In this document: piece by piece, positions 7,753-45,917 of the stretch
How the letters are laid out: each line of letters begins with the position of its first letter
Numbering within the stretch: the first letter of the stretch is position 1
Source of the DNA: an uncultured Chloroflexia bacterium
GTDB taxonomy: Bacteria; Chloroflexota; UBA6077; JACCZL01
Assembly: GCA_963765765.1 (NCBI GenBank)
Contig: CAVXYC010000010.1
Span: forward strand, 32,001-96,000
Direction: 5' to 3'
Length of the DNA: 64,000 nt
The notes under the pieces: model-generated
The model's input: the letters and a program-made list of their open reading frames with translations, nothing else
Databases searched by the model: none
What the model was told of the DNA's origin: nothing
Position numbers and translations under genes: made by a program

Positions 7753-7783
7753 TGCTCAGGGGTTCTGTGTTGAGGATGATCCT

Positions 7784-11789: not shown

Positions 11790-13109
11790 ATGCTCACGCG
11801 TGAAGAGAATGATCTATTAACGCGAATCGGTCCCGGTACCCCGATGGGGGACATGATGAGGCGCTACTGGCTTCCGGCCGCGCTTTCAAGCGAGATCGCT
11901 GAGCCAGACGGAACACCGAAGCGAGTTCGTTTGCTCGGCGAGAACCTGGTTGCGTTTCGAGATTCATCCGGGCCAGCCGGCGTTATGGACGAGCTCTGTC
12001 CGCATCGTGGCGCATCGTTGGTTCTCGCGCGAAACGAGAACAACGCGCTCCAGTGCCTCTATCACGGCTGGAGAATTGCCGCGGACGGTGAAATCCTGGA
12101 GACTCCGTGCGAGCCAGAAGATAGCGACTTCAAAGATCGGATTCGCCATGTAGCATTCCCGGTCCGAGAGTTTGGTGGCATGGTCTGGGTCTACATGGGC
12201 CCTCCCGGGACAGTGCCCGAGGAGCCGCGATTTGCCTGGACGGAGCTGCCTCCAGAAAACGTCTCGCTCATCAAGATGCGTATCGAGTGCAACTGGGCTC
12301 AAGGCCTGGAGGGGGTTATCGATTCCGCTCATTCAAACTTTCTGCATTCGAGTGAGATCGTTCCCTCGGCCGCCGCGTCGTCGCTCGGCGGCGCGTCTAT
12401 CTTTCGCAATTCGGACGAGACGCGGCAGCTCGATCGGCCTTCGAATGATGGACGCCCTCGTATGGAGACGCAGGACACTTCGTACGGCTTTCGCTACGCG
12501 GCGATTCGGAAACCTATGCGGGATGCCGATAAGAACAAGTACATCCGCGTGAGCTTGTTCGCAGCGCCGTTCTACGGTTTCTTCCCGACGCCTGATGGCT
12601 TTGGCGCGATGCAGGCCTTTGTGCCGGTGGATGACGAGACGACTCATTTCTACTTCGCCCAGTATTCGCTTAGCGGTCCGGTAGATAAGGAAAACTATGC
12701 CTACCGATCGGGTGCCAGAATGGGCATTGACCTGGACGAAGACTTCCGCAAGATCCGCACGGTGGAGAACAACTTCCTGCAGGATCGTGAGCTGATGAAG
12801 AGCGGCAAGAGCTTCTCCGGCATTTTTGGCGTGAACGTCCAGGACATGGCCGTTCAGGAGAGCATGGGCAAAATCTACGATCGTACGCGTGAGCACCTTG
12901 GCGTCAGCGATGTCGCGGTGATTCGCTTCCGACGCATCATGCTGGACGCGGCTCGAAAATTTGCCGAGAGTGGCCAGACCCCGCCGTCGCTACAGGGTGG
13001 CGTGCCTTACGGGCAGCTCCGAGCTCAGGAGAAGATCATCCCAATTCAGGACTCCTGGTTGCCGGTCGGCGCGTTCGCCGGCGAGCTGACCGAGGTCGGT
13101 GGTCGCTGA
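11790..13109 (+). CDS. Rieske oxygenase alpha subunit, copy 3
   Basis: CPHRG...CLYHGW; EGVIDSAHSNFLH; QDMAVQESMG. Confidence 0.92.
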   Translation: MLTREENDLLTRIGPGTPMGDMMRRYWLPAALSSEIAEPDGTPKRVRLLGENLVAFRDSSGPAGVMDELCPHRGASLVLARNENNALQCLYHGWRIAADGEILETPCEPEDSDFKDRIRHVAFPVREFGGMVWVYMGPPGTVPEEPRFAWTELPPENVSLIKMRIECNWAQGLEGVIDSAHSNFLHSSEIVPSAAASSLGGASIFRNSDETRQLDRPSNDGRPRMETQDTSYGFRYAAIRKPMRDADKNKYIRVSLFAAPFYGFFPTPDGFGAMQAFVPVDDETTHFYFAQYSLSGPVDKENYAYRSGARMGIDLDEDFRKIRTVENNFLQDRELMKSGKSFSGIFGVNVQDMAVQESMGKIYDRTREHLGVSDVAVIRFRRIMLDAARKFAESGQTPPSLQGGVPYGQLRAQEKIIPIQDSWLPVGAFAGELTEVGGR

Positions 13110-18460: not shown

Positions 18461-19901
18461 TTGACTACGCGCGAGTGTGACGTTCTGGTGATTGGCTACG
18501 GCGGCGCTGGGGCGTCAGCCGCCATCGAGGCGCACGATGTCGGCGCGGACGTCCTGGTGGTCGAGCGCGCTGCCGAGGGCGGTGGGAACACGCGCGATTC
18601 TGGTGGCAGCCTGCGAACGATCGTGGATGAGAAGCTCGCGGCCGACCACTTTGAGGCAGTTACCTATGGTTCCACTCCCCGCGACGTCATTGACGTCTTC
18701 GTACGGGGAATCGAGCCCATGCTCCAATGGCTTGTTGCGAATGGCGCCGAGCTGAGCTCCTGGGTTGGTATTGGTGGATTTCCGAGTCGGCGTCGAGACA
18801 CCGCGTATCCCGGCATTCCAGGTAGCGAGGGTTTGGGGCATCGCATGCGCGTCAAGCCGAAGGGCGATGAGGCTGGAGGCGGCCAGGCACTCTGGGACGT
18901 ACTCGATGACGCTGTAAGATCGCGCGGGATTCCCGTGCTGCACGAGGTGCGGGCCAGACGTCTCGTGCGTGATTCGGATGCACGCATCACGGGAGCGCGA
19001 CTGGAGACAGATGGTGGCCCCATGGAGGTGGTGGCGCGACGTGGAATCGTCCTGGCCTGCGGCGGTTACAGCTATTCCCCGGAGATGCAGAAGCAGTTCA
19101 TTGGAATGGAGCTTCCCGCGTTCGGGCCGCCCGGTCGAAAACGCCGGCGACGGCGTCAAGATGGCGCAGGACATCGGAGCCGATCTCTGGCACATGAACG
19201 CCGCCGCGGCCGTGTTTGGCTACATCGTCCCCGGACGTGAGGCTGCTTACCAGCATCGGATGCCCTCTCCCGGCTACATCTACGTGGATCATCATGGCGC
19301 TCGATTCGTTGATGAGGCTGGGCTGGATAACCACGCAATGGGAAAGATGCTGCTTCAGTTCGATCCCACGCGGGGCGAGTATCCGCGCATCCCAAGCTAC
19401 ATCGTGTTTGATGAAACGACGCGCCTTTCAGGGCCGGTGTGCCACATTCGCGGTGGCTATAACCGCCGCTTCGGCTGGAGCGCGGATAACTCAGAGGAGA
19501 TCGAGCGCGGCTGGATTCAGCGCGCCGAGACGGTTGCCGAGCTAGCTGAGCAAATCGGCCTTGACGGTGCAGTTCTGACGGCCACGGTGGAGAGATACAA
19601 CGAGCATTGCCGCGAGGGTGTCGATGCGGATTTCGGTCGTTCGGATGGCCTGGAAGAGCTGAAGTCGGCTCCTTTCTACGCAATCAAGGCCGAGCCATGC
19701 CTGCTAAACACCCAGGGTGGTCCACGACGAGATGCTCGAGCGCGAGTCTTGGATGTGTTCGGCGAACCAATTTCGGGGCTGTACGCGGCCGGTGAGCTGG
19801 GCTCTATCTGGAGCACGTTGTATCCCGGCTCTGGGAACATCAGTGAGGCGCTCGTCTTCGGACGTATTGCCGGCCGGGAGGCTGCGCAGCGGACCGATTA
19901 G
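18461..19901 (+). CDS. FAD-dependent oxidoreductase (3-ketosteroid dehydrogenase/flavocytochrome c family), frameshift at ~19140
   Basis: VIGYGGAG, VLACGG, N.GDG, TQGG, GLYAAGE, FGRIAG; extra A in the cgAAAAcgcc homopolymer. Confidence 0.88.
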
Positions 19902-23755: not shown

Positions 23756-24217
23756 CTACTTCTCTTCACCAATCAGCGTCCCACACCTGCGGCAGATCCA
23801 GCGGGTGGCGCCTTTGCTCGCTCGCTTCAGCGTGAGGACCAATATCACTCCGCCAAACGTGAGCAGCCCTGTACCAGTGCTTAGAGACGAGAGGATGTCG
23901 CGTCCGCCTGGAGCATTTACGGTTGCACCTGGGTCAATCAGCGCGCCCGTCGGATCGATGGCGACGGTGACCAGCATGACGCTACCGAGAATGAGAAAGA
24001 ACAGCGCGAACGGGGTTGTCATTGGCGGCGGCGGGTCACTGGGATAGGGAGGCAGCTTTGATCCGCAGCGTGGACATCCGAAGAACCCTGTACCCAGCTT
24101 GAAGAGTGCTGTCAGAGTCATCGACATGTCAGGCTCCGCATGGGCTCTTGGCCTGAACCGCTCGCGGCGCGAGAGTGGCAAAGTCGGGCCCGCACAGCAC
24201 CAAGTGATGCCGCTCAT
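23756..24217 (-). CDS. membrane protein with split zinc knuckle (CPRCG ... CRRCG)
   Basis: ATGA overlap with the upstream gene; two hydrophobic segments between two CxxC pairs. Confidence 0.65.
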   Translation of the reverse strand: MSGITWCCAGPTLPLSRRERFRPRAHAEPDMSMTLTALFKLGTGFFGCPRCGSKLPPYPSDPPPPMTTPFALFFLILGSVMLVTVAIDPTGALIDPGATVNAPGGRDILSSLSTGTGLLTFGGVILVLTLKRASKGATRWICRRCGTLIGEEK

Positions 24218-26317
24218 CGAATGGAAATTGGCTCGAGCATTACACGATCGTCGGCGCGATCCTGCGAGAGCGATACCCGGGCACGTTGGAGCGACGTAGG
24301 TTCGTACACACCTATCGTTGGTGTGAGGCGTGCTCCGTCCTTGTCTTGGGGAATCGGCATCGTGACGCGTCGGACGAGCAGGTCTCCATTGCGCCAGGCG
24401 GTAGACGGCAAACCCAGCCCATCTGATTGCGCGACAATCGATCCATCCTGATCAAGGAGATGAAAAAAGACTGAGTAATCTTGAGCTCCACTCGTGGGCG
24501 AGTATCCAGTGAAGGTCCAGTAGGTGGTAAGCGCAAGCGTCTCACCCGGCTCCAGTCGCTGTGGGGAATCGTAGGACACAAGCTGCAGTCCGGGTTCAAA
24601 GCTGGCTTGAATAGATCGTCGACCGAGTGATTGGTCACGCAACGCCCGTGCTGGCACCTGTACAAGGCGAGTCGCATCACGAGTCCCCGGCGTGGGCACT
24701 TCCAGCAGGCGTTCGGGGTTGCGAATTGTACGCGGCAGCTCGACGCCTGGAAGCTGCAGCGTAAGCCCCGGTTTCTCCAGCGGAAGCACCACCGTACCTT
24801 CGAACGGAAAGCGGGCGGTGATCCTGGGCCCAAGCATGTAATCGAGCGCCATGCGCCGCCGGTCCACGTACAGCTCATAGGGATCGCTGAGACTGGTGTA
24901 GACCGTCACCGTGTTGATCTCCCGTTGCGTGCTCGTCGATCCAATCGCCGATGAAAGCTCTCGCCAGTAGCTGAGCGGAGTGCCGAACAAATCGCCAATT
25001 CCAGAAGCGCGAGTGAGCTGCTGCTGGTCATTCAGCCGCGTCTGCCGCTCCACCGCGCTGACCTGGTCAGTTGGAAGGGATGCCTCCACCCTCACTCCCT
25101 GCAGGAGGGCGCTGAAGAGCACCTGATGCACCACCCCGATTGCGATGAGACATGCGAAGGCGACAATCCCGAGCAGCCGGTGCAGTCTGAACGCAGCACT
25201 GAACGGCAGCGCCGCCAGGAGAAAACATGACGGCACTACCGCCGTCATGTAGTGAATGTAGACCGGGCGAGACTGAAGCATGGCTGCCCCGAGCGGCGCC
25301 GCCAACCAGATGATGGCCAGGGCGTAGCCTTTCCATCCGGGCGCTCTCCCAATACACAGTGCCACCGCCAGGACAAGTCCCACGACCATCGCAATGATCA
25401 GAGCCATGCTAGTGATGTTTTGCGCGAGACCGAGCGAACGGAACGCTTCGGCTCCCTCAGTGAGCTTTGCCTGAAGCTCGGAGCCCCCGACGAACCACCC
25501 GAGCAGACGCGGAGCGTCCATCGGCGTATTCGGAGTCACTGGCGCAATCGCGGCTGGCGCGCCAGTAGACTGGTGCCGCACCTACGAGCGTGCTCTGGAC
25601 CGAGTCCTTGAGCTCCCAGAGATGGATCGCGAACGGCGCATTGATCGCAGCCACGATCACGACGCCCGGAATGATCGAGATTCCCCACGAGCGTACGAAT
25701 CCTAGAACTGTGAGCACGGCCGGTAGCACGAGCACGGCGCCCAGCAGGTGCGTCTGCATCTGGAGCCCGAGTGCCAGAAAGAAGAGCAGGCTCCAGCGTC
25801 GCTCACCATACTGCACCACGCGGGTAGCACTTAGGAGCATGAGGCTGGTCAGCACCGGCTGAGCGTTCACCCAGGGCTGACGCCCAAAGTAGATGGCCCA
25901 GGGACTACACGCGTAGAGCAACGCGGTTCCGAACCCAAGCGCGCTGCCCCCCACTGAGCGACCCCAGAAGTAGGCCAGAAGCACCGAGACTGTGTTAACC
26001 GCACCGAGGAGCCAGGTGCGAGCTATCGTCGGGTCAGATACCGCCTCGACAACGGCGTAGACGTAGAGCATCAGCGCGGGGTCTGGCAGTAACCATGAGG
26101 TGACCTCGTTGGCAACCGGACGAGCACCCAGCGCAATGGCGCGTGCGCGCAACGCCTCCAGGGCCTCGTCATACCCAAAGGGGACGAGCTCCGGTGCAAT
26201 GAACCGAGGCAGAGCCGCGATAAACACAAGAAGCGCCACGCCGATCGACTCGGCGACAAGCCACCCAAACTGAGCGGACTTGGGACTTCTAGCTGAGAGC
26301 TCCTCTGCCCCTACCAC
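24214..26317 (-). CDS. GT-C (ArnT/PMT-like) membrane glycosyltransferase with extracellular C-terminal domain, frameshift at ~25580
   Basis: RF...PFGYDEA, LLYACSPWAIYFGR.PW, YIHY; C-terminal YSVFFHLLD..G..VAQSD....T..W..GD domain. Confidence 0.75.
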
Positions 26318-28833: not shown

Positions 28834-29768
28834 GTCAGTCCGAGCGTACCCTCCTTGTCTATCGCCCAGGAGCGCTGGGCGATACGCTCGTCTCTCTTCC
28901 CGCTCTTGCAGCAGCCCAAGCGCGTTTCGCCGCGACAAGAACGATATTTGCCGCCTCCTCCGTGGCCGCGCCGCTGCTCAGCGAGAATCAAATTGCCGAT
29001 GTCGTTCTCTCGGCTGATGACCTGCGTTTGCTCCATCTTCTCTCGGGGAACGTAGAAGCACTTACAACCGCGCTCGGTCCTGTTGATATCGCGGTACTGT
29101 GGGGAGGAGAAGCGCTGAAGGTTGCGGCCGCGGCGCTCCGGGAGCGTGGCATTGAGGTGATTCACACGCCGTCGCGCCCGCCAGAGGCCTCTGATCTTCA
29201 TATATCCGACTACCTTGTGAGGACCATCGATGAAGATGCTCCTGGTGCAGGCACTTCGGATCGCCTTCGTCCTCCCTCGGCCGATGAGAGCTGGCTCGCT
29301 GAGCATTTTGGCAACATCGTCTCGCGGCCAACGTTTACGATGCATCCCGGAAGCGGCTCGTCGCGGAAGAACTGGAGCCCTGGCTCGTTCGCGTCGCTAG
29401 CCAATCTGGCGCGGAAGCGCATGGGCGTCCAGTGCGCAATTGTCTCGGGTCCAGCGGATGCGGGCATACTCGAGGAGATCCTTCCCGCGCTCGATGAGCC
29501 TCCCGCGGTTATTGCACGCGACTGGTCACTCGGCCAGGTAGCGGCATTGCTTCACCATTCGTCGATGTACCTGGGGAACGACTCCGGAATCTCGCATCTT
29601 GCAGGGGCGCTCGGTGTTCCGGGGATTGCTCTTTTCGGTCCCACTCGCCCGGAAGTCTGGGCTCCACGGGGAGATTGGATCCGCGCCGTAGGCCGGCCGT
29701 CAGTGCGCGAGCATCAGCCTGAGGACGTGTTCGAGGCGCTGCGGGCTGTCGCGCTCAGCTCCGCGTGA
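28830..29768 (+). CDS. glycosyltransferase family 9 protein
   Basis: RPGALGD, HPGSGS.RKNW, GNDSGISHLA, LFGPT. Confidence 0.92.
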   Translation: MSQSERTLLVYRPGALGDTLVSLPALAAAQARFAATRTIFAASSVAAPLLSENQIADVVLSADDLRLLHLLSGNVEALTTALGPVDIAVLWGGEALKVAAAALRERGIEVIHTPSRPPEASDLHISDYLVRTIDEDAPGAGTSDRLRPPSADESWLAEHFGNIVSRPTFTMHPGSGSSRKNWSPGSFASLANLARKRMGVQCAIVSGPADAGILEEILPALDEPPAVIARDWSLGQVAALLHHSSMYLGNDSGISHLAGALGVPGIALFGPTRPEVWAPRGDWIRAVGRPSVREHQPEDVFEALRAVALSSA

Positions 29769-29923
29769 GCTAGTTCCCTACAGCGAACGTCTCGAGTTCG
29801 CCGGCTCCCTTCGCCGCGGCGCCATCGATGTTTGGCGTGGTGATACGTTCGCTTGCCACCCGCCGACGCTGCAGAAAAGCAACTAGGATCGAAACCAGGC
29901 CGTCCCATGCACGGGAGTTATTA

Positions 29924-30211
29924 ATGGATTGGCCCAAATTAGACGCGCTCGGCGCGGAGTTGAATGCTAGATTGCAACGCGGCGGGCTTCAGGGACTGCA
30001 GCCGGTGACGCTCGAGGGCGGACATGTCATAGAAGCGGAGCTCATGGCGCGGATCGTCCTCGCCGATATCGAGCATATCGAAGAGTGGGATCGTAGGCAC
30101 CCGACGAATCCGACCGGTGAGACGCGGTTGCGGACAGTGGGAACGGAAGCTCGGCAGTTACTCGGACTGCACCGGGACGACCGAGATGCTGCCGCGGACC
30201 AATTTCGCTAA
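29924..30211 (+). CDS. uncharacterised 'DW' family protein, paralogue A
   Basis: GGGAG RBS; MDWPKLD...ARIVLADIEHIEEWDRRHP; homologous to 32393-32697 and 33820-34143. Confidence 0.8.
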   Translation: MDWPKLDALGAELNARLQRGGLQGLQPVTLEGGHVIEAELMARIVLADIEHIEEWDRRHPTNPTGETRLRTVGTEARQLLGLHRDDRDAAADQFR

Positions 30212-30379
30212 TTCCTACCAACTTTCTCGGAAATTCCTGGGGCCATCAACCTTACCGTCTGCTATCCTGAGAATCGGCGGAGTTGCTGGGTCTCAAGCCT
30301 GCCACCGGGGTATCGCGCCTGGCGTGCGTCCTGGTCCGCCGATCACGAAATCCGCTGGCCTGCGAGGAGAAGTGGCGCG

Positions 30380-30622
30380 ATGGGGAGCGACTCCGATCCG
30401 ACCCCGAATCCCGGTGACCAGGGTCGAGGCATGCTTACTCGGCTCCAGGAAAACATTGCCGCACTTGTGGCCCAGGGCCTCTCGAATCGCGAGATTGCCG
30501 AGCGTCTATCCTTGACGCCCGAAACCGCGTCCGACGAGATAGCGCACATTTTCCGGGCGTTAGGACTCACCTCTCGCTTACAGATTGCTCTCTGGGCACT
30601 CGAGCACGGATCGCACCACTAG
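30380..30622 (+). CDS. stand-alone LuxR-type HTH protein
   Basis: LT.LQENIAALVAQGLSNREIAERL...LGLTSRLQIALW. Confidence 0.85.
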   Translation: MGSDSDPTPNPGDQGRGMLTRLQENIAALVAQGLSNREIAERLSLTPETASDEIAHIFRALGLTSRLQIALWALEHGSHH

Positions 30623-30995
30623 TCGTGGTCGAGGCGGACTATATGATGCTGCTCTTTGCAGAGCGTGTCGCGGAAGGCAATCTAGCGGTTCTTGTACGCC
30701 AACTGCGTCGCTGGGTCCCGACAGCGCTCCGTAGCGTCAGCTGATATGCTGGACAGTTGCTCATTGCGCTGAATCGGTTGCTCAGTAGCCCTGTGACCTT
30801 GATCCGGATGGTTCGGCTCCAACACCAACAATCCGATTCTTCAGCGCGAAACGGGCGGCCAATCGTCGTGGTACAGTTTCCGAGATATTCTCGTCAGCCC
30901 TCGGTGGGATCAGGCTCCAGTCGTCACTATGATCATTGGCTGTTCCAGTTGTGTTGATGACGACGCTGCCTATCTTGGATGCAGTTAGGGGCGTC

Positions 30996-32396
30996 ATGCC
31001 GCGCGCGATCCCGACACGCCGCCTTCACCGACCCACCGCAGTCCCGGTGGACTCGGACGGCGGGCACGAGCCTCCGACACGTCAACGCAATGATCCCGAT
31101 AGTGCGGCGACCGCTCTCCCAGTTGTAATCGGCCAGGAGCTGCTTTCGGCCATCTGGGATTCGGCGACCGACGCGATCGCGGTCTCCGATGCGTATGGCA
31201 GAGTGTTAATGGCCAACCCGGCGTATTGTGCGCTGTACGGCTATGGGCTCGATGATGTGATCGGCCGGAGTTTCGCGCTGATCTTCCGTTCGGAGGACCG
31301 AAGCAGGGCTGAGGCGGGCTACCGGGCCACGTTTCACGGTCCTGTCCCGTCTGGCACGGTTGAATCGGCCGTCCAACTCGCCGATGGCTCCGAGCGCACC
31401 GTGGAGGCGCGCTTCCATTTCCTCACCGATGCGGGCGTGCGCACCGCGATGGTGTCCCTCGTCCGGGACATCACTGATCGCAAGCGTTTGGAGCAGAATG
31501 AGCGTGAGTTCCTGGCTATGGTAGCCCACGCGCTGCGGAATCCGCTGGCATCGATTGGCGGCTACACGCAGCGTATGCGACGGACCCGTGAGTACTCGGA
31601 GCACTCGATGGAGGCCGTACTGCGGCAGACGGCGGACCTCAATCGGTTGGTCGGCGACCTGGTCGATGTTGCCGCCCTCGAAGCGGGACATCTACGGCTC
31701 GAACGGCAGGCAGTCCGCCCGGATGAGCTCGCCAAGGCGGTCGCTCGGCAGGCTCAGGCGGGGACCGATCGTCATCGAATCCGCGTGCGGATAGATGGAC
31801 CCATCGACATCGCCATGTGGGACCCCGTGCGCATCGGTCAAGTGTTGGACAATCTGCTCGCTAACGCCATCAAGTATTCGCCTGAGGGCGGCGAGATCCT
31901 AGTCTCGCTGCGCGCCGATGGAAGGTCCGTGCGCCTGTCCGTGAGCGATGCCGGGATCGGAATCTCGGCGCCGCGCCTCCCGCGTCTCTTCGAACGGTTC
32001 TATCGAGTTCCGGATTCGTCCGACAATGCCACTGGTCTGGGATTGGGCCTGGCCATCAGTCGGGCGCTGGTCGTCGCGCACGGCGGGTCGATCGAGGTTG
32101 AGTCGACCGTGGGACGCGGCTCGACGTTCACGATAGTGCTCCCGTTCTCGGGTGACTTCTCGATGCCCCAGGAGACGGCCGCGTTGACCTCACGAGAATT
32201 GGAGGTCGCTCGCCTGATCGCGGCGGCGCACTCGAACCGGGAGATTGGCGAACGGCTCTGCATCACCGCCGGAACCGTCGCGAACCACATCCAACACATC
32301 CTGGCGAAGCTGGGCGTTAGTAACCGCGGTCAGATCACGCTGTGGATCGTGGAGCACGGCCTCCTTGCTGAGTCATCGACCGGTCTCGGGCGCTAG
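30996..32396 (+). CDS. PAS sensor histidine kinase fused to a C-terminal LuxR HTH
   Basis: PAS (NPAYCALYGY...RDITDRK), HisKA (AHALRNPL), NLLANAIKYS, D.GIG, GLGLGL, then LTSRELEVARLIA..SNREI. Confidence 0.9.
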   Translation: MPRAIPTRRLHRPTAVPVDSDGGHEPPTRQRNDPDSAATALPVVIGQELLSAIWDSATDAIAVSDAYGRVLMANPAYCALYGYGLDDVIGRSFALIFRSEDRSRAEAGYRATFHGPVPSGTVESAVQLADGSERTVEARFHFLTDAGVRTAMVSLVRDITDRKRLEQNEREFLAMVAHALRNPLASIGGYTQRMRRTREYSEHSMEAVLRQTADLNRLVGDLVDVAALEAGHLRLERQAVRPDELAKAVARQAQAGTDRHRIRVRIDGPIDIAMWDPVRIGQVLDNLLANAIKYSPEGGEILVSLRADGRSVRLSVSDAGIGISAPRLPRLFERFYRVPDSSDNATGLGLGLAISRALVVAHGGSIEVESTVGRGSTFTIVLPFSGDFSMPQETAALTSRELEVARLIAAAHSNREIGERLCITAGTVANHIQHILAKLGVSNRGQITLWIVEHGLLAESSTGLGR

Positions 32397-32697
32397 CCTT
32401 TGCGTGCGTGTCGGGGGTTCGCACTCGCCGCGGCATGATCTTCCTTCACCAGCCCAAGAAGGGAGCGCGCCCAACACCCCAGATCCTCCAGACGGGCCTT
32501 ACTTGACAGCTCCGCTGGGTGCGTCCGCTCCCAATCGCGGACATGGTCGATGTCCGCGAGGACGAGGTGTGCGAGTACGTTACGGTCTATTGGTCGCTGC
32601 CCATACTTGACGTTATAGGTCCGAGCCCAAGGAACGCGCCGCCCGATACCGCGTCGTTCAATCGAGCAGCCAGCACATTCAATTCGGTCCAGTCCAC
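32393..32697 (-). CDS. uncharacterised 'DW' family protein, paralogue B (1-nt deletion at ~32610)
   Basis: GGAGGG RBS plus GTG: MDWTELNVLAARLNDAVSGGAFLGLGPIT / KYGQRPIDRNVLAHLVLADIDHVRDWERTHP. Confidence 0.75.
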
Positions 32698-32825
32698 CGC
32701 GGCCCTCCGCGCATTCCGTCGCCGTGGCTTGCGGACGCGCCAAGAACTCGGGATGCGAGCGTCAGCGTATCAACCCTGGCTTGCTCCAACTCGCCCGGGC
32801 GCCAAAAAATGTGTACATCAACACA

Positions 32826-33004
32826 TGTCCCCCTTCTCAGCCACCGAACGCCACGTTGGAACGGTGTCCCGCGCGGCGGAGAGGCTCCTGGCCGATGCCG
32901 TGCTGTCCAAGCCGTTCCAGTTAGACGAGCTTCTTCGAGCCATCCTGGACTTGGTCGAGCCACACTCGAAGCCGTGTAAGCCACGTAGCCAATGTTTCTC
33001 CTGA
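32826..33004 (+). pseudogene. receiver-domain C-terminal remnant
   Basis: AAERLLADAVLSKPFQLDELLRAI; N-terminal receiver half absent. Confidence 0.55.
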
Positions 33005-33316
33005 TAGGGCCCATTCGGGGCCGTCTTGTAGAGACGCATTGGTACACCGGCATAGCCCATGCCTTAGGCCTCACTAATCTTGCAAAAGCGATGATCACCT
33101 ACCACAGTGTCACAGCAGGCCAAGTCGGGTCGATGTCGGAGTGCCATCGATGTCGGAATGCCATCAAGGAAAGACGTCCGTAGAACGTCGAGCGCCTGAA
33201 AGCCTCGTCGACGTGAGCACGCGAACCGAAAACGGATGCGGGCTTACTTCCTTTCGTCATTCGCGGCATCCCCGCAATGCTCCACATTCTCGCGCCCGAA
33301 AAGGTGGTCCAATCTG

Positions 33317-33676
33317 ATGCCAAGCGTCTTGGTCGTGGACGACGATCTCGCGTTACGCACGATGATCGCCCAACTGATGTCCGACGAGGGCTGGCAGGTC
33401 CGCGGCGCCTCCGACGGGGCCGATGCGCTCGCGGTGCTCGACACCTGGCTCCCGGATGTGTTGCTCGTCGACCTGACGATGCCGCGCATGGACGGGCGGG
33501 TCTTCATCTCGGAAGTCACCCGCATGAATCGCACGGCGAACATCTCGATAGTAGTCATGTCCGGGCGTGGGGCCGTCCATCCGGCGGCGGCCGAGCTCCG
33601 CGCGGCCGCCGCAATGGAAAAACCGTTCGAGGTTCGGGAGCTCGTTGATACTCTCGCAGCACTCATCCTGAAGTAA
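33317..33676 (+). CDS. single-domain response regulator (CheY-like)
   Basis: VLVVDDD, PDVLLVDLTMPRMDG, MSG, EKPF. Confidence 0.92.
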   Translation: MPSVLVVDDDLALRTMIAQLMSDEGWQVRGASDGADALAVLDTWLPDVLLVDLTMPRMDGRVFISEVTRMNRTANISIVVMSGRGAVHPAAAELRAAAAMEKPFEVRELVDTLAALILK

Positions 33677-33819
33677 GAATCGAGCCGGTTAAGTTCCCGA
33701 AGGAGCCATGGCGACCGGGTATCGTGGCATGCGGTCTCGGAGATATCCCTCAGCGAGCCTTGCCTGGCGGCATAGTCTTTGCAAAAAATGATTCAGCAGC
33801 TTACGCGGGGAGCCCCAGA

Positions 33820-34143
33820 TTGGATTGGTCTGAGCTCGATCGGATTTGCGACCAGCTTGGCCGTGTACAGAGGGAGGGAGCGTTCCGTGGACTCTTACCG
33901 GTTGCACTGCATGCCGGTGACCGTCCAATCGACGCCGATCTTCTTGCGCGAATCATCCTGGCTGATATCGACCATCTACGAACGTGGGAACGGACGCACA
34001 CGCCTCATGAGTCTTCGGATCACCGCCGCGATCAGCTCGGAGCCGAGGCGCAGCGCGTGTTATCAATTCTTCACGATAGACATTTCCCGGCAACCGGAGA
34101 CGATTCTGGAGCAGCCGCGCAGCAAGTTGCGTTCGGCTGCTGA
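33820..34143 (+). CDS. uncharacterised 'DW' family protein, paralogue C
   Basis: GGGGAG RBS plus TTG: MDWSELD...GAFRGLLPVAL..GDRPIDADLLARIILADIDHLRTWERTH. Confidence 0.8.
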   Translation: MDWSELDRICDQLGRVQREGAFRGLLPVALHAGDRPIDADLLARIILADIDHLRTWERTHTPHESSDHRRDQLGAEAQRVLSILHDRHFPATGDDSGAAAQQVAFGC

Positions 34144-34165
34144 ATCTTTGTCTGATCGGTGACAC

Positions 34166-34205
34166 AGCAAGGGGCCCTCGGGAAAGGTCCCGAGGGCCCC
34201 TTGCT
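34166..34205. terminator. 18-bp stem hairpin between convergent genes
   Basis: agcaaggggccctcggga-aagg-tcccgagggccccttgct. Confidence 0.75.
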
Positions 34206-34333
34206 CGCTTCCGGGCAGCGCGATGGCCCCTTAGACGGCGCCGCCTCCGAGTATCGCGAAGCGTTCGATGGTCGACGCCGGGGCCCTCGCTTGCTCTCAC
34301 ATTTGTGATGCGCCGTTGGGTGGGCGACGTCCG

Positions 34334-35161
34334 TTAGGCTTCTCCCGGCTTCCGAGCGCGAACAAAGGCGCTCACCACTCGTCCTTCAGCGTCGACCGGT
34401 TCTGACACCTCACCACCGCAGCAGCCGCCACTCTGCGCGATGTCCGCCATGTTGTAGACGCGCGTGACTTCGAGATCCACCTGGCCGAATCCGGCCTCTG
34501 CCAGGAGGCGCCGATACTCTTGCTCCTCGAGAGCACCGGCGATGCAACCGACCCACGATTCCATGCTCTCGCGGAGCTCGGCCGGCATCTCGCCCTGGGC
34601 CACCACGTCCGACACGGCAAAGAGTCCGCCGGGCTTGAGGACCCGGAATGCCTCCTTCAGGACCTGGCCTTTATCGGTGGACAGGTTGATGACGCAGTTG
34701 GAAATGATGACGTCCACCGTGTCATCGGGGAGAGGTATCGCCTCGATCTGGCCCTTGAGGAACTTGACGTTCTCGGCGCCCGCTTTGAGCCGATTCTGCT
34801 CGGCGAGGTGCAGCATCTCATCGGTCATATCTAATCCGTACGCAAAGCCAGTTGGCCCAACTCGGCGAGCGGAGAGCAGCACATCGATCCCTCCCCCGCT
34901 TCCAAGGTCGAGAACGACCTGACCTGGCTCAAGCGTGGCCAGTGCGGTCGGGTTGCCACACCCGAGCGATGCTTTTGCAGCATCCTCAGGAATCACCGCG
35001 AGCTCCTCCGAAGAATAGAGCGCGGAGGTGATGGCATCGTAGTCGACCTCGCCACCGCAACACGAAGCAGTGCCGCCACCCGCCACGGCCTGCGCACGGG
35101 CCGCGTACTTTTCTCGGACGGTCTCGCGAATGCTCGATGCAGACGATTGTTCAGTGGTCAC
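34334..35161 (-). CDS. arsM: arsenite S-adenosylmethionine methyltransferase
   Basis: SLGCGNP, VLDLGSGGGID, SNCVINL, WVGCIAGA, CC pairs. Confidence 0.95.
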   Translation of the reverse strand: MTTEQSSASSIRETVREKYAARAQAVAGGGTASCCGGEVDYDAITSALYSSEELAVIPEDAAKASLGCGNPTALATLEPGQVVLDLGSGGGIDVLLSARRVGPTGFAYGLDMTDEMLHLAEQNRLKAGAENVKFLKGQIEAIPLPDDTVDVIISNCVINLSTDKGQVLKEAFRVLKPGGLFAVSDVVAQGEMPAELRESMESWVGCIAGALEEQEYRRLLAEAGFGQVDLEVTRVYNMADIAQSGGCCGGEVSEPVDAEGRVVSAFVRARKPGEA

Positions 35162-35175
35162 AGTAAGCTCCTTAT

Positions 35176-35191
35176 ATTGATCATTGTCTAT
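35176..35191. promoter_or_regulatory. ArsR-type operator upstream of arsM
   Basis: Minus strand ATAGAC-AATG-ATCAAT, an imperfect copy of the 35597 palindrome. Confidence 0.55.
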
Positions 35192-35213
35192 GTCACTGTG
35201 TAAAAAAGGGGGC

Positions 35214-35576
35214 TCAGGTAACGCTTTGCACCTCCGGAAGAGTGAGGTAGTGAGAAAGGCTGCTCAGCAGCTCCAGCCCGTTCGGATCCACCGCGTAATA
35301 GGCCCAGGTTCCGCGGCGTGACACCGTGACGAGCCCGGCCTCGCGCAGCACTTTGAGATGGTGCGAAATGGTGGGCTGGGTCAGATTGAACTGGGAGACG
35401 ACGTCACACACGCACAGCGCTTCCGCATGCCCGGCGATCAAACGGAAGACTTCAAGGCGCGTCGGATCACCGAGCGCCCGGAATACCGCGACCAGGCGCT
35501 CCTGCCGCTCAGTCGATAAAGGGCTCGGTGCCGTTACGGGTGGGCAACAGGCTGGCGAGATGACATCCAGATTCAT
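35214..35576 (-). CDS. arsR: ArsR/SmtB family regulator
   Basis: ALGDPTRL, LCVCD, QPTISHHLKVLREAGLV; N-terminal ACCPP. Confidence 0.92.
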   Translation of the reverse strand: MNLDVISPACCPPVTAPSPLSTERQERLVAVFRALGDPTRLEVFRLIAGHAEALCVCDVVSQFNLTQPTISHHLKVLREAGLVTVSRRGTWAYYAVDPNGLELLSSLSHYLTLPEVQSVT

Positions 35577-35596
35577 AAGGTGAGTATAGACTATAA

Positions 35597-35680
35597 ATAG
35601 ACATTTGTCTATATATGGCGATTTATTCAATAACTTGATTCATGCGTGGTCTAGTATCCACAATATCAACGATGGTTGAT
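35597..35680. promoter_or_regulatory. ArsR-type operators in the divergent promoter
   Basis: ATAGAC-ATTT-GTCTAT (35597-35612) and ATCAAC-GATG-GTTGAT (35665-35680). Confidence 0.7.
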
Positions 35681-36049
35681 CTACATGTGCTCACGGTACC
35701 TGCGCGCGACGTCTCCGAGGTCGTCGCGGAGTTCTTGCGACTCGTTAACGATGCCACGAGGCGCCGCATCTTTCTCCTTCTCATGGAGGGAGAGATCTGT
35801 AATTGCGAGCTCTCTGATCGGCTGGCACTTCCCCAAAATCTGATCAGCCACCACATCCGCCAGTTTCGCAATGCCGGACTCGTACAGTCGCGGCGAGACC
35901 CTCAGGACCAGCGCTGGATCTACTTTCGTGTCGATACAATCCTGCTGGCACAGATCCACGAGGAGCTGAGTGCCGTCTTTGACCCGGCCTCTGTCGGCGA
36001 CCGCGCGGCGGAGTGCGGCCCCATGAATCCTCCGCCATCGTCGGAATAG
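35672..36049 (+). CDS. arsR: ArsR/SmtB family regulator (second, divergent; start uncertain)
   Basis: EICNCEL, QNLISHH, GLVQSRRD..D.RWIYF. Confidence 0.88.
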   Translation: MVDLHVLTVPARDVSEVVAEFLRLVNDATRRRIFLLLMEGEICNCELSDRLALPQNLISHHIRQFRNAGLVQSRRDPQDQRWIYFRVDTILLAQIHEELSAVFDPASVGDRAAECGPMNPPPSSE

Positions 36050-36117
36050 GAAAGGACTGAACCGTTGCATCTCGTGGCACCAATACATCAACAGCCATTG
36101 AATCGCTGCTCGATAAC

Positions 36118-37029
36118 GTGCGTTCCGCGCTAATCGGCGAGTTGCTCGGCACGTTTCTCCTGGTCCTTTTCGGCATCGGGTCTGTGGCCTCGGCCGTGCT
36201 CACGGGAGCCCTCCAGGGATTGTGGCAGGTGGCGGTGGTCTGGGGCTTCGGGGTTGCGTTGGCCATCTACTGCTCCGCCTCGCTCTCAGGCGCCCATCTC
36301 AACCCGGCGGTCACGCTGGCGATCGCGGCGCTTCGGCGGGATACATTCCCATTCCGCTTGATCCTTCCCTATTGGGGCGCCCAGCTCGCTGGAGCCATAG
36401 GCGCCGGCCTGGTGGTGCTGGTTGCCTTCGCCCCGTATTTGACGCGCTTCGAGGCGCGCGAAGGCCTCGTCCGTGGGGCCCCGGGCAGTGAACGCGCCGC
36501 GATGATCTTCGGCGAATATTTTCCCAATCCCGCGATCTTCGGTACAGGCCCGGATGCCGCGGCGTTAACCTCGCCCCTCGAAGCGGCCCTGGTGGAGGCG
36601 CTCGGCACGGCGATCCTGGTATTCGTCATCTTCGCCCTGACCGATCCACGCAATCGCACGGCGCCGGCGCCAGGCATGCTGCCGTTCTTCATCGGCTTCA
36701 CGGTGGCGATCTTGATCTGTCTTTTCGCGCCGATCACCCAGGCCGGCTGGAATCCCGCCCGCGACTTCGGACCACGGCTGGTCGCCTGGGCGGCGGGTTT
36801 CGGGGACATCGCGATTCCAGGACCACGAGGCGGTTTCTGGATTTATATCATCGGCCCGCTCATGGGTGGCATCGCGGGCGGGTGGATTTACGATCGCGGG
36901 ATCGGGCCACTGATGCCGCCAAAACGCTTGTCCCCCGACGCCGAATCATCGAGGCGATGTCGACCCCGGGGAGAACCTGGAGTGACGGCCATGGCCTGTA
37001 ATGACGTCGACCCTGAGGCGAGCTTATGA
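36118..37029 (+). CDS. aquaglyceroporin (GlpF/AqpS-like MIP channel)
   Basis: SGAHLNPAVT and WNPARDFGPR (NPA-R-D glyceroporin signature). Confidence 0.92.
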   Translation: MRSALIGELLGTFLLVLFGIGSVASAVLTGALQGLWQVAVVWGFGVALAIYCSASLSGAHLNPAVTLAIAALRRDTFPFRLILPYWGAQLAGAIGAGLVVLVAFAPYLTRFEAREGLVRGAPGSERAAMIFGEYFPNPAIFGTGPDAAALTSPLEAALVEALGTAILVFVIFALTDPRNRTAPAPGMLPFFIGFTVAILICLFAPITQAGWNPARDFGPRLVAWAAGFGDIAIPGPRGGFWIYIIGPLMGGIAGGWIYDRGIGPLMPPKRLSPDAESSRRCRPRGEPGVTAMACNDVDPEASL

Positions 37030-37469
37030 AGCAGCGAATCTTATTCCTGTGCACACACAACTCGGCCCGGTCGCAGATGGCGGAGGGCCTTTTGAGGTTC
37101 CTCGATGGCGAGCACTTCGATGCCTTTTCCGCGGGCACCGAGGCGACCAGGGTCCGACCGCTAGCTATTCAGGCGATGGCGGACGTGGGAATCGACATCT
37201 CTGGGCAGCAAAGCAAGACACTAGACCGCTATCTCAACGAGCCGTTCGACATCGTAATCACGGTCTGCGACCAGGCCAACGAGCAGTGCCCGGTCTTCTT
37301 TGGTGCCAAGGAACGACGACATTGGAGCTTCCCCGATCCATCCCAGGCCAGCGGAACGGACGCCGAGCAGCTCAACGTGTACCGGGACGTCCGCGATGGA
37401 ATCCGCGATCGGATTGAGCGAGAGCTGCTGCACCATGTTGAGTACGAACAGCAAGGCCTTCAGCGCTGA
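37026..37469 (+). CDS. arsC: arsenate reductase (thioredoxin-dependent, LMW-PTP fold)
   Basis: FLCTHNSARSQMAE, ITVCD....CP, HWSFPDP; ATGA overlap with the aquaporin gene. Confidence 0.95.
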   Translation: MKQRILFLCTHNSARSQMAEGLLRFLDGEHFDAFSAGTEATRVRPLAIQAMADVGIDISGQQSKTLDRYLNEPFDIVITVCDQANEQCPVFFGAKERRHWSFPDPSQASGTDAEQLNVYRDVRDGIRDRIERELLHHVEYEQQGLQR

Positions 37470-37968: not shown

Positions 37969-38993
37969 ATGACCAACCAACGTCAACTGACACCGGTAAG
38001 TACTCGGAAAGGGCGGGTTCCTCGGTATCTTGTCTGGTTGGGGAGGATCGTTTCAGTCCTTCTCGGTGTTCATGCTGGGCACGCCTGCGGGATGGCGGCA
38101 GAAGATCGAATGTCCGAGCGTATCCTCCTACAGGTCAATGGTGGGGGTGGGCGGCCATCGACTCCACCTCAACTGCCTGGGTGAAGGCAATCCCACCGTG
38201 GTGATCGATGCGGGTTGGGGTGATTGGTCTGCGTCCTGGAGCAGCTGGGTCCAGCCCGCTGCGGCCAGGACCACGCGAGTGTGTACCTATGATCGCGCCG
38301 GCATGGGCTACAGTGATCCAGGCCCGCTGCCGCGCACGGCCGAGCAATTCGCTCAAGAATTGCACCTTGCACTGAATCACGCGCGCATTCCTGGCCCCTA
38401 CGTGTTAGTTGGTCACTCGGCGGGCGGTTAAACCGAGAGCGTATTCGCGCACGAGTTTGCCACGGAGGTTGCCGGGTGGTGCTCATCGATTCGATGAGCC
38501 CGGGAGAAGCTCGGAATTCTGGCGCGACGACATCACCACCGATGGAGGCGCCGACCGCCACGACTGGATCCTCACACTCCCAGCTCGGATTGGCTTGTTA
38601 CGTGTGTTAGCCGGACCACTGGGAATGAAATCGGGGTTGGCCCCCGACATCGCCGACGCCTACGCCGGGTTCTCAGTGACACCCCGCGCTCTTCAGGCGA
38701 CCATTGATGAAGGCAGGAGTATCTCCGAAAGTTTGGACCAGGCGGGCGCCGTCACGAGCTTTGGCGCGATACCCTTGATCGTGCTGTCGCGCGGACTCGA
38801 TCAGCGGGACGACTGGGAGAGGTTGCAGACGGAGCTCCTCAAACTGTCATCCGATAGTCAGCAATTGATCGCGGACAAGAGCGGTCACAATGTCCAACTT
38901 GACCACCCAGAAGCAGCGGTGAGGGCCATTGTGCAGATGATCGAGCACATCCGCATGCTGGATGACAACGCCCATGGCAGCTCCGCTTCATAA
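37969..38993 (+). pseudogene. alpha/beta hydrolase, multiply frameshifted
   Basis: Fragments LHLNCLGEG.PTVV, YDRAGMGYSD, LVGHS.GG, SGHNVQLD in different frames. Confidence 0.75.
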
Positions 38994-42497: not shown

Positions 42498-44817
42498 TCA
42501 GCTTCCTGACGCCGCGGACTCGGGGAGCTCCCGCCGCAGTAGGAGTGCGTTGCTCACCACCGTGATGCTGGAAGCGGACATCGCCAACGCGCCAAACTCG
42601 GGCCTGAGCATAAATCCGAACGACGGGTAAAGCGCTCCGGCCGCGACCGGGATGGCGATCACGTTGTAGATCGCTGCCCAGAAGAGGTTCTGCTTCATCT
42701 TGCGTACCGTGGCCTTGGAGAGCTGGATCGCCTGGAGGACATCGGCCGGATCGCTTTTCATCAGGATGATGTCGCCGGTCTCGACAGCCACATCCGTGCC
42801 AGCGCCGATGGCGATGCCCAGGTCGGCCTGGGCCAGCGCAGGCGCGTCATTTACTCCGTCGCCCACCATTGCCACGAATTTCCCTTCGGCTTGCAGCGCC
42901 TTCACGCCTTCGGCCTTGTCCTGGGGTAGCACCTCGGCGAACACTCGCTCGATGCCGACCTGGCGAGCAATCACGTCCGCGGTGGCGCGATTATCCCCGG
43001 TCATCATGACCGGCTGGATGCCCAGCTCCTTGAGCTCCGCGATGGCTTGCGCGGCATTCGGGCGAACGGTGTCAGCGGCGGCGGCAATACCGGCCACCCG
43101 CCCATCCACGGCCACCAGCATCAGCGTCTTGCCCTCTCTCAGAAGGCGCTCAATGTCGCCGGCCAGGATATCGAGGTGGACTCCGCGCTCTTCCATGAGC
43201 CGACGCGTGCCAACCAGCACATCGCGGTCGCCGACACGCGCGCGCACCCCTCGACCGGCGAGGTTCTCGAACTCTTCGATCGCGAGGTCGTTGGCGAGCC
43301 CACGGCGTTCCAGCTCGTCCAGCACGGCGTCAGCGAGCGGGTGCCCGCTGCGCGCCTCGGCCGCGCCTGTCAGTCGGAGAATCTCATCCTCGGATTGATC
43401 ATTGACTGCCAGCACGTCGGTGACCCTGGGCTTGCCCTCCGTGAGGGTTCCCGTCTTGTCAAAGATGATGGCCTGGATGCGGGAGGCAAGCTCCAGGGAG
43501 ACGGCCTGCTTGAAGAGGATGCCGCGGCGGGCGGCCATGTCTGTGGCCACCATGACCGCGGTCGGCGTGGCCAGTCCCAGCGCGTCCGGACAGGCGATCA
43601 CCACGGCGGTCACGGCAAACGTGAGCGCCACCAGCAGCGGCGCCCTGGCTACCAGGAGCCAGACCAGCAGTGTGAGCAGTCCGGATCCAACCGCCACGAT
43701 GACCAGGTAGTGCGCCGCCCGGTCGGCCAGCCGCTGAGCCGGCGCTTTGCTGTTCTGGGCCGTCTCGACGAGACGGACGATCTGTGCCAGGGCGGTGTCC
43801 GAGCCGACCTTGGTCGCACGGAATCGCAGCGACCCGGATTGATTGATGGTGCCAGCGATCACCTCATCAGCGGGATCCTTCTCTACCGGTATGCTCTTCG
43901 CCGGTCACCATGCTCTCGTCAATGGTGCTGTGACCGTCCATCACGGAGCCATCCACCGGAACCTTGTCGCCCGGCTTCAGAATGACCGTGTCGCCCACCA
44001 CGACCTCGGCAAGCGGCACCTCATGGCCACTCCGTCGCGATCCACCGTGGCTTGTTGCGGCGTGAGGTCCAGAAGCTTGCGGACCGAGTCCGACGACCCG
44101 CGCCGCGCCTTCATCTCCATCCAGTGGCCAAAGAGGAGGAACACCGCCAGCATGACGGCGGCCTCGTAGAACGTCTCCTGGCCGGGGGCGAGAAACGTCA
44201 AGCCCACACTGAACAGATACGAGACCAGGATGCCCAGGCTCACCAGGACGCTCATATTCAAGACGCCAGAGCGGAGCGACTGGTACGCGCCGATGTGAAA
44301 GACACTGCTGGTCCAGAGTGCTACGGGCGTGGAGAACGCCAGCAAGATCCACTCATGCGGGAATACCGAAGGGCGTGGGGAGCATGCGGCCGGAAAGCAT
44401 CATGGCCATCGGCGAATAGAGCACTACGGGGATCCCGAGGACCAGGCTGATCCAGAAGCGGCGCCGCATGTCGGCTTCCATCGCCGCGGCCATCCCCGGA
44501 TCCGACATATCGTGCGCGCCGTGGGCCATGCCACCGTGGTCCACGTGAGCGTGCTCATGCGTCGAGACTTCCGGGCCGGGGAGCGGTACCGGATTCCGCT
44601 CCCCGTAGGCCTGCGCGATCAGCTCGGCAAGGTCTTCAACTCGCACGCTGCCGTCATCGACGTCCACGTGTGCCTGATGATTCTTCGCGTCGATATGGAT
44701 CTGCTGCACGTGCGGGTTGGCGCGCAGGCGCGCCTCCACAATCTCCCGACAGCCGTCGCAAGCGATTGGGCCGGTGGGTACGGTGAGCGTGGTTCGGGAG
44801 TGATCGTGGTGGCTCAT
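42498..44817 (-). CDS. copA: heavy-metal (Cu) P1B-type ATPase, several frameshifts between ~43860 and ~44360
   Basis: HMA CDGC, His/Met tract, [32 protein letters not shown] and MSASS. Confidence 0.88.
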
Positions 44818-44918
44818 CGTGTTCTCCGCGATCGGGCGCCGCGCGGGCACACGCGTCCGATCTGCACTAGTCCCGTGGGAGCTCCCGAGTGTGCGGGCGT
44901 CTCATGGGGAAGACTGCG

Positions 44919-45083
44919 TCACATCGACGGTTTGTGGCTCGGATCGAGGTAATTCTTCGGGTCGGCCTCGAACGCTTTCTTGCAACCGGGGGCGCAGAAG
45001 TAAAACGTCGTCCTCTGGTACTCCGCGGTGTGCCGAGCCGTCTGGGGGTCCACCTCCATGCCGCACACGGGGTCTTTTGCCAT
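44919..45083 (-). CDS. YHS domain protein
   Basis: MAKDPVCGMEVD...FYFCAPGCKKAF...P..Y. Confidence 0.9.
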   Translation of the reverse strand: MAKDPVCGMEVDPQTARHTAEYQRTTFYFCAPGCKKAFEADPKNYLDPSHKPSM

Positions 45084-45179
45084 CGTCGTCTCCTCTCTTA
45101 CACGAGGTCTGTTACCTGGCGAATGTATCCAGCCAAGGGGATGGGTAGTCACGTGACTACCTATCCGTTTGCTTGTGAA

Positions 45180-45917
45180 TCAGAGGCCGTACCAGCTCGA
45201 GAGCCAGGTGTTCATGGTGGTGATTTCACCTGACTGGCTCTGGATGATCCCCTGGGCGAGATCCTTGAGATCCTGGTGGGCAGCTCGATCGGGCACCAGG
45301 TTGGCCATCTCCACGGCGCCCTGATGGTGGGGGATCATCATGCTGAGGAACACCGCTTCCAGCCGGGCAGGTGGAAGCTTCCACAAGTCCGCCATCATGG
45401 ACATCTCGCCCATCATCCCCGCGGGCATGCCCTGGGACGACGGCATCATGCCGCCTGGTATCCCCTGACCACCGGGCATCATGCCGCCGGGCATACTGTG
45501 GCCGCTATGGTCCATCCCACCCGGCATCGCGCCGGAACCGGGCATCTGTCCACCGGGTTGCATCATTGCGTCCATCATCGCCACGTGATCGGGAATCTCC
45601 AGCCCGTACCAATCACCAGCCCAGCCGCGCATCTGGGCGATCTCACGTGTCTGATCATCGATGATCGTTGTAGCAAGCTGCTTGAGCTCCGGGTGGGTCG
45701 CATTGCTCGCGACCGGTCGCGCCATCATGACGGCCATGGCGTGGTGCATGCTCATCTGACTAAGGAAGGCTTTATCAAATTCGTCGCCGGAGAGCTGGTC
45801 CAGCGGCTGGGCCATAGTTCCCACCTGCGCCATGGCAGGCATGCCTGTGACCCGAGCCGCTAACAACGCCACGATGGCGACCAGCGGTATGGCAAATACA
45901 ATCAAACGGTAGAACAT
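45180..45917 (-). CDS. DUF305 (CopM-like) secreted metal-binding protein
   Basis: Two FL..M..HH..AV.MA repeats with a Met/Gly-rich linker. Confidence 0.88.
   Translation of the reverse strand: MFYRLIVFAIPLVAIVALLAARVTGMPAMAQVGTMAQPLDQLSGDEFDKAFLSQMSMHHAMAVMMARPVASNATHPELKQLATTIIDDQTREIAQMRGWAGDWYGLEIPDHVAMMDAMMQPGGQMPGSGAMPGGMDHSGHSMPGGMMPGGQGIPGGMMPSSQGMPAGMMGEMSMMADLWKLPPARLEAVFLSMMIPHHQGAVEMANLVPDRAAHQDLKDLAQGIIQSQSGEITTMNTWLSSWYGL

Follow-up and report, generated by a model that had tools for sequence, protein, structure and literature searches.

Three copies of a small protein within a signalling cluster

The DNA analysed here, called the window in the following, is a stretch of 64,000 nucleotides (nt) from an uncultured Chloroflexia bacterium (assembly GCA_963765765.1, contig CAVXYC010000010.1, positions 32,001 to 96,000). 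It encodes exactly three copies, A, B and C, of a protein of about 90 amino acids (aa), referred to as DW, and all three lie within 4.2 kb together with a PAS kinase carrying a GerE domain, a GerE solo protein and a receiver identified with Pfam (Table 1). The number of copies was determined by searching all stop-to-stop segments of the six reading frames with a hidden Markov model (HMM) of the family. Copies A and C were matched with E-values of 4e-50 and 2e-39, copy B was recovered as two pieces, and the next segment had an E-value of 0.15 or worse. A preliminary description of this DNA, made from its letters alone, had placed three copies at these positions, and the family HMM found these three only.

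Each copy has its own Shine-Dalgarno site and a different start codon, which agrees with the preliminary description. The sites are GGGAG with a 6-nt spacer before ATG for copy A, GGAGG with a 6-nt spacer before the GTG at 32697 on the reverse strand for copy B, and GGGGAG with a 7-nt spacer before TTG for copy C. All DW pieces follow the coding pattern GC1>GC3>GC2 in their guanine-cytosine content by codon position, like the neighbouring genes. At copies A and C, where longer open reading frames (ORFs) exist, the additional upstream sequence lacks this pattern, which supports the short DW starts.

Copy B had been described as hidden by a 1-nt deletion, and the two HMM pieces in different frames, covering model positions 1-33 and 29-94, bear out a frame break. 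The N-terminal piece extends from 32697 to about 32611, where the first frame provides about 29 family-like residues and ends in a stop after 36 codons. The C-terminal piece extends from about 32611 to 32393, and this remainder (32617-32393) is read one base back in frame, up to the stop at 32393. Either the loss of one nucleotide or the gain of two would produce such a break. If an X is placed there, copy B is gapless and colinear with copies A and C, which fits a single missing base near 32611. Copy B may be a pseudogene or may contain an assembly indel; since at least two other genes of the window are also split between frames, the break may equally be an assembly indel or a mutation.

At the protein level, the copies are clearly diverged, with identities of 37% (A-C), 41% (A-B) and 43% (B-C). 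A repeat search found no repeat between them at the DNA level, and no upstream motif shared by the three was found.

Table 1. Features of the window; positions are counted from its first nucleotide, and the signalling cluster and its surroundings are listed before the other genes.
Feature	Position	Strand	Description
LON substrate-binding-domain protein and family-9 glycosyltransferase	upstream of the cluster		Pfam
DW copy A	29924..30211	+	95 aa; begins MDWPKLD; ATG; intact stand-alone member
LuxR-type helix-turn-helix-only protein (LuxR solo)	30380..30622	+	80 aa; Pfam GerE, residues 19-73, E=1.3e-9
PAS-HisKA-HATPase_c-GerE fusion kinase	30936..32396	+	Pfam PAS_4 74-184, HisKA 190-251, HATPase_c 296-404, GerE 416-470
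DW copy B	32393..32697	-	GTG start at 32697; split over two frames
Receiver C-terminal remnant	32858..32956	+	33 aa with KPF motif; found by tblastn with the neighbouring receiver
Tandem direct repeat	33130-33163		17-nt units, 94% identical
Single-domain receiver	33317..33676	+	119 aa from ATG 33317, within ORF 33236-33676; Response_reg E=1.9e-19
DW copy C	33820..34143	+	107 aa; TTG; intact
Inverted repeat	34166..34205		perfect, 18 nt, 4-nt loop, 100% complementary; between DW copy C and convergent methyltransferase gene
Arsenic cluster	34334-37469	-, -, +, +, +	directly downstream; ArsM-like methyltransferase, ArsR, ArsR, MIP channel, LMWPc arsenate-reductase-like protein
Rieske / LigXa-C-type oxygenase genes	1246-2676, 7577-9076, 11790-13109	+	three paralogues
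FAD_binding_2 gene	ORFs 18461-19240 and 18969-19901	+	split
PMT_2-like glycosyltransferase gene	24214-26317	-	possibly split
Alpha/beta hydrolase gene	38030-38993	+	possibly split
Heavy-metal P-type ATPase gene	42498-44901	-	HMA piece 44353-44901, E1-E2/hydrolase piece 42498-43862
YHS-domain gene	44919-45179		beyond the P-type ATPase
DUF305 gene	45180-45917		follows the YHS-domain gene

Pfam also confirmed that the copies flank a LuxR solo, a PAS kinase fused to a LuxR-type domain and a single-domain receiver, as had been described. The kinase has its own LuxR-type helix-turn-helix (HTH) and no receiver, and its translation may in fact begin further downstream than the TTG at 30936. A C-terminal GerE HTH is unusual on a histidine kinase that lacks a receiver. 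In the H-box of this kinase, HALRNP, the His is directly followed by Ala, at a position usually taken by an acidic residue. The stops of the kinase (32394-32396, forward strand) and of copy B (32393-32395, reverse strand) overlap inside the palindrome GCTAGC (32392-32397), so that the two convergent genes have no spacer between them.

The receiver remnant noted in the preliminary description is real in that it shares 13 of its 33 residues (39%) with the final helix-strand-helix of the receiver next to it (E=3e-5, 661 nt searched), but it is limited to this short segment, and the ORF enclosing it has no Pfam match. For the complete receiver, the ATG at 33317 is the most likely start, and the protein has all the residues which, by the receiver consensus, we take to be its acidic pocket, phospho-acceptor Asp, Ser and Lys. 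The tandem direct repeat about 150 nt upstream of this gene could be a candidate regulator binding site, and the inverted repeat behind copy C is likely a terminator hairpin. In a simple scan of 29600-34400, no sigma-70-like promoter was found, and terminator-like sites in this region were not in excess over shuffled sequence. Neither Rfam families nor tRNAs were found in the window.

A rare family with a conserved core

An exhaustive search of 1.84 billion representatives with the family profile returned 67 clusters at the 50% identity level with E<=1e-3, of which 16 had E<=1e-10 and 3 had E<=1e-30. Nearly all of these matches are 60-125 aa long. One of them, P0069, is a repeat protein of 1699 aa; this match is probably spurious and was excluded from later alignments. 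Of 77 candidates examined for copy A, 17 proved to be relatives, with identities of 61-95% and lengths of 91-105 aa; these relatives have no Pfam domain, and the only name they carry is 'hypothetical protein'. The family members P0009 and P0010 lie on contigs of 398 kb and 893 kb. For copy C, one relative at 88% identity was found among 14 candidates.

Searches against established collections were largely empty. Pfam reported no family at E<=10 for copy A, copy C and the C-terminal piece of copy B, and for 65 further relatives, scanned at E<=0.01, only the domains of fusion partners exceeded the cut-off. NCBIfam, PADLOC and PHROGs gave nothing meaningful for the same three window sequences, and the best PDB sequence had E=0.23 against the family profile. 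When the GTDB species genomes were scanned with two patterns, 101 and 42 stretches matched, none of which was confirmed as a relative, and a tblastn search of plasmids with copy A, P0055, P0053 and P0030 gave no match. Longer fused forms of 292-2000 aa were not found, which is weak evidence by the search tool's own rating. A feature search of the ESM Atlas with copy A and P0030 returned no usable match. In full-text literature, the motif strings occurred as unrelated words only and no description of the family was found, though a family without a name is not reliably searchable. Judged by these sequence searches, DW is a real but rare domain family, previously unclassified and so far encountered almost entirely in metagenomes. 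Its earlier description as unrecognised holds for Pfam, NCBIfam, PDB sequences and the Foldseek searches of PDB and BFVD described below.

Conservation was counted over 68 sequences, comprising the representatives at the 50% level together with copies A and C, in the numbering of copy A. The most conserved position is Asp48 (67/68), preceded by Leu46 (65/68) and Ala47 (62/68); Gly20 (61/66), Arg43 (57/68) and Arg68 (46/59) are also widely kept. At position 51, 53 of 68 sequences have His, and the others have Asp (6), Arg (5), Tyr (3) or Ser (1). Trp3, the 'W' of 'DW', is found in 27 of 58, Trp55 in 20 of 68 and His59 in 15 of 44. The motif LADI[DE]H...W[DE]RxH, previously called invariant, is so among copies A, B and C but not across the family. 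Even within the 17 close relatives of copy A, five have Asp instead of His51 while being otherwise 53-75% identical to copy A, and position 59 varies between Tyr, Asn, Ser and Asp. This variation makes the motif a property of a subfamily. The signature of the whole family is Gly20 together with the Leu-Ala-Asp core, in which only Asp48 is near-invariant. Copies A, B and C all match the HMM of the family, which we define by about 85 aa, a predicted order of helix, hairpin, helix and helix, Gly20 and Leu46-Ala47-Asp48.

The AlphaFold2 model of copy A, built from a 21-row alignment, has a predicted local distance difference test (pLDDT) value of 87.3 and a predicted template modelling (pTM) score of 0.77. 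It consists of a helix (3-18), a hairpin (28-35), a long helix carrying the motif (38-58), a further helix (66-79) and a disordered tail. The same topology was predicted for residues 163-254 of P0052, a fusion protein introduced below, at a pLDDT of 90-98. In this protein, the linker before the DW domain has a pLDDT below 50 and the pTM of the whole is 0.45; the disordered linker indicates that the DW domain is an independently folding module with no confident packing on the receiver. Foldseek found no significant match to the model of copy A, the best hits being generic helical bundles with E=0.46 in PDB and E=0.36 in BFVD, and returned only receiver domains for the model of the P0052 fusion. 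The structural neighbours of P0030 in the ESM Atlas were generic three-helix bundles such as FIVAR, DUF1542 and the Hsp70 lid.

The preliminary description had suggested a small helical phosphotransfer, phosphatase or connector protein using the conserved His/Asp, to be compared with Hpt, DHp and Spo0E-like folds, and these data support neither phosphotransfer nor any of these folds. Like DW, Hpt domains (Pfam PF01627) have about 100 aa, are helical, carry a His on a central helix and occur after receivers. The order of a receiver followed by an Hpt domain is common and resembles that of a receiver followed by DW. His51 lies in the middle of its helix and is kept in copies A, B and C and in most of the family. 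In Hpt domains, the phospho-accepting His is invariant and solvent-exposed. His51 of DW is Asp in five close relatives of copy A, the most conserved residue is Asp48, and the predicted three helices with a hairpin are not the four-helix bundle of Hpt. There was no Hpt match in Pfam, and the Foldseek search of PDB yielded nothing better than the hit already mentioned, with no Hpt structure among the hits listed. With fold, profile match and His conservation all failing, an Hpt-like identity is largely refuted, and we regard phosphotransfer through His51 as very improbable. In HisKA/DHp domains, the H-box His is followed by E/D-x-x-T/N. His51 of DW stands in the context L-A-D-I-[DE]-H-[ILV]-R, and Pfam gave no HisKA match. 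Spo0E is a helical hairpin with a signature motif. The fold predicted for DW differs from it, and no Spo0E match in Pfam was obtained for copy A, copy C, the C-terminal piece of copy B or the 65 relatives.

On a helical wheel drawn from the alignment columns without coordinates, Asp48 falls within the hydrophobic arc of helix 2 and is probably buried, so that a role within the structure or in a pocket seems more likely than catalysis at the surface. We infer that Asp48, together with Leu46, Ala47 and Gly20, forms the centre of the fold or of a site for binding and is not phosphorylated. In addition, DW domains are acidic, with an isoelectric point below 7 in 76 of 81 and a median of 5.46, which argues for the binding of proteins and against that of DNA.

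Domain fusions and the proposed role in signalling

The connection of the family to two-component signalling, which the preliminary description had derived from the neighbouring genes, is supported by natural fusions in addition to the local cluster. P0052 (264 aa) carries a Response_reg domain (21-130), a linker and a DW domain (171-254), and P0062 is colinear with it across the end of the receiver and the DW domain at 54% identity. In P0051 (426 aa), the DW domain (5-62) precedes two PAS domains, an arrangement with which P0086 (42%) and P0064 are colinear. Finally, P0079 (164 aa) has a GerE domain (7-51) followed by DW (81-148). Among the 65 relatives analysed with Pfam, only Response_reg, PAS and GerE were ever fused to DW, and the same three kinds of domains flank copies A, B and C. 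The order of the receiver gene and copy C in the window also corresponds to the domain order of P0052; the two receivers are 28% identical, so there is no special kinship between them. A genetic association with two-component genes is thus found in one cluster with three copies and in the fusions.

These fusions bear on the possibility that DW has no functional tie to its signalling neighbours and is an unrelated small protein whose copies were clustered by local duplication. The intergenic gaps of about 140-310 nt, the absence of a shared upstream motif, the restriction to one locus and the possible decay of copy B would all be compatible with this explanation. Against it, the domains fused to DW are confined to receiver, PAS and GerE, the very kinds that flank the copies, and for this reason we consider it rather unlikely.

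We tentatively favour the reading that DW serves two-component pathways as an acidic adaptor or output module that binds proteins, and assign to it a real but somewhat less than even probability. In some organisms, DW forms the C-terminal 'output' of a receiver or is attached to a LuxR-type HTH or to PAS sensors. In the window, the corresponding parts are separate genes, namely the single-domain receiver, the HTH-only LuxR protein and the PAS kinase with its own LuxR HTH, and the free DW proteins may serve as adaptors or connectors between them. DW would bind the receiver, probably in a phosphorylation-dependent manner, and/or a LuxR-type HTH or the kinase, and this binding would set the output of the pathway.

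Several points weigh against the adaptor reading. Binding, the choice of partner and the direction of the effect are all inferred. The complex prediction for the receiver and copy C gave scores of 0.20 and 0.00 compared to a mark of 0.32, and has no bearing on binding in either direction. The linkage to signalling genes comes from one locus and from the fusions. Within this locus, the gaps of about 140 nt or more do not make co-transcription evident, and the clustering of the paralogues could partly reflect the chance landing of duplications.

A further point of this kind comes from the phylogeny. A maximum-likelihood tree was calculated by a quick procedure from 81 rows and 90 columns, leaving out P0069, the copy B fragment P0003 and rows with fewer than 60 aligned residues. 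It is short and poorly resolved, with 39 of 78 inner forks open, and contains two supported clades of 29 rows (clade I) and 52 rows (clade II), each with a value of 97 in the Shimodaira-Hasegawa-like approximate likelihood ratio test (SH-aLRT). All fusion forms are in clade I and copies A, B and C are in the stand-alone clade II, so the argument from the fusions holds at the level of the family only. Copy A is part of a 20-row clade of close relatives, copy C groups with P0021 and P0023, and copy B is unplaced, its nearest relative being only 43% identical. As the three copies are not each other's nearest kin, the duplications are old and do not reflect a recent local expansion. The earlier proposal of an expansion by local duplication is therefore only loosely right.

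The adaptor reading can be extended to a dedicated coupling module that docks onto phosphorylated single-domain receivers and relays their signal to PAS kinases or to proteins with a LuxR-type HTH. In this way, a 'split' NarL-type regulator, whose receiver and HTH are separate genes, would be reassembled via a third protein; an enzymatic version of the same idea would be a new class of receiver phosphatases built around the invariant helix Asp. We consider this more specific proposal possible but doubtful.

In its simpler form, the enzymatic alternative states that DW is an auxiliary aspartyl-phosphate phosphatase that docks onto the phosphorylated receiver and inserts Asp48, together with His51, into the active site to accelerate dephosphorylation. 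The near-invariance of Asp48 on the long helix, with His51 three residues further on, is consistent with this, as are a small helical protein adjoining a single-domain receiver and the receiver fusions P0052 and P0062. According to PMC3035606, the side chains that CheZ and CheC/CheX/FliY place in the active site of the receiver are one acidic and one amide, and a conserved Asp of Spo0E is implicated in dephosphorylation. As described there, Spo0E, CheZ and CheC/CheX resemble DW in being small or helical with a conserved acidic residue on a helix, and they target receivers; DW differs in its predicted fold of three helices and a hairpin, matches neither CheZ, CheX nor Spo0E in the Pfam and Foldseek searches, and lacks the conserved amide. 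The DW alignment shows no conserved Gln, Asn or Thr as a partner residue, 15 of 68 sequences have another residue in place of His51, and Asp48 is probably buried. Fusions to GerE and PAS would be unexpected for such an enzyme as well, and we judge a phosphatase activity to be improbable.

In a different alternative, DW is a small ligand- or metal-binding input domain whose helix 2 stripe of Asp48, His51, Trp55 and His59 binds the ligand and signals to the HTH, PAS or receiver partner. Asp and His residues at i, i+3 and i+11 are on one face of the helix, and the exchanges of His for Asp would keep the character of a metal ligand. The HTH fusion P0079 is typical of one-component sensors, and the cluster adjoins arsenic and heavy-metal genes. 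Against this explanation, Trp55 and His59 are not conserved across the family, and there is no Cys for arsenite. In addition, a strong hairpin separates the ars genes from copy C, and a sensor positioned C-terminal to a receiver would be unusual. Such an input function seems quite unlikely to us.

Other genes of the window and relation to known systems

Some further genes of the window show disrupted reading frames. The heavy-metal P-type ATPase gene is spread over at least three frames, either through decay or through assembly indels. The two halves of the FAD_binding_2 gene match Pfam positions 1-206 and 224-412, with the frame change between about 19076 and about 19131. The PMT_2-like glycosyltransferase and the alpha/beta hydrolase listed in Table 1 are possible split genes, each being a pair of overlapping ORFs on the same strand with a Pfam match in one half only. 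At the beginning of the window, genes for short-chain dehydrogenases, parts of ABC transporters and an alpha/beta hydrolase lie between the three paralogous Rieske / LigXa-C-type genes, and this region looks like a catabolic island for aromatic or methoxy compounds.

Regarding function, DW can be compared with connector and accessory proteins such as PmrD, MgrB and the small DUF1127 proteins acting on PhoR. Connectors are likewise small and stand-alone, their genes are often found close to signalling genes, and they work through binding to a kinase or response regulator and not through catalysis. Connectors are a functional class and not a family, and there is no sequence or fold relation between those described and DW. 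Unlike them, DW is in some cases covalently joined to a receiver, to PAS domains or to a LuxR HTH.

Among the output domains, ANTAR is a three-helix, RNA-binding domain found after receivers. It resembles DW as a small helical domain joined by a linker to the C-terminal side of a receiver, but DW is acidic, and no ANTAR match was found with Pfam for copy A, copy C, the C-terminal piece of copy B or the 65 relatives. Rv1626 and EutV were poor matches only, and the alignments to 1sd5 and 6ww6 had root-mean-square deviations of 14-15 A and were driven by the receiver. TraM-type anti-activators of LuxR-family regulators resemble DW as acidic helical proteins of about 100 aa encoded beside a LuxR-type regulator, which DW would likewise bind. 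No similarity to DW appeared in the PDB sequence or fold searches, and the LuxR proteins of the window have no autoinducer-binding domain.

Single-domain receivers and HTH-only LuxR proteins are common in bacteria, and how they pass the signal on is often unknown. The rarity of the family, with 67 clusters and none in the GTDB scans, limits the reach of the finding. As a small domain that is found free beside such receivers and LuxR proteins and elsewhere in fusions with a receiver, a LuxR HTH or PAS sensors, DW offers a concrete candidate for their coupling part, and it could join the catalogue of response-regulator output domains. Its main value is the definition of a new domain with a confident fold model and with Asp48, His51 and Gly20 as clear targets for mutation.

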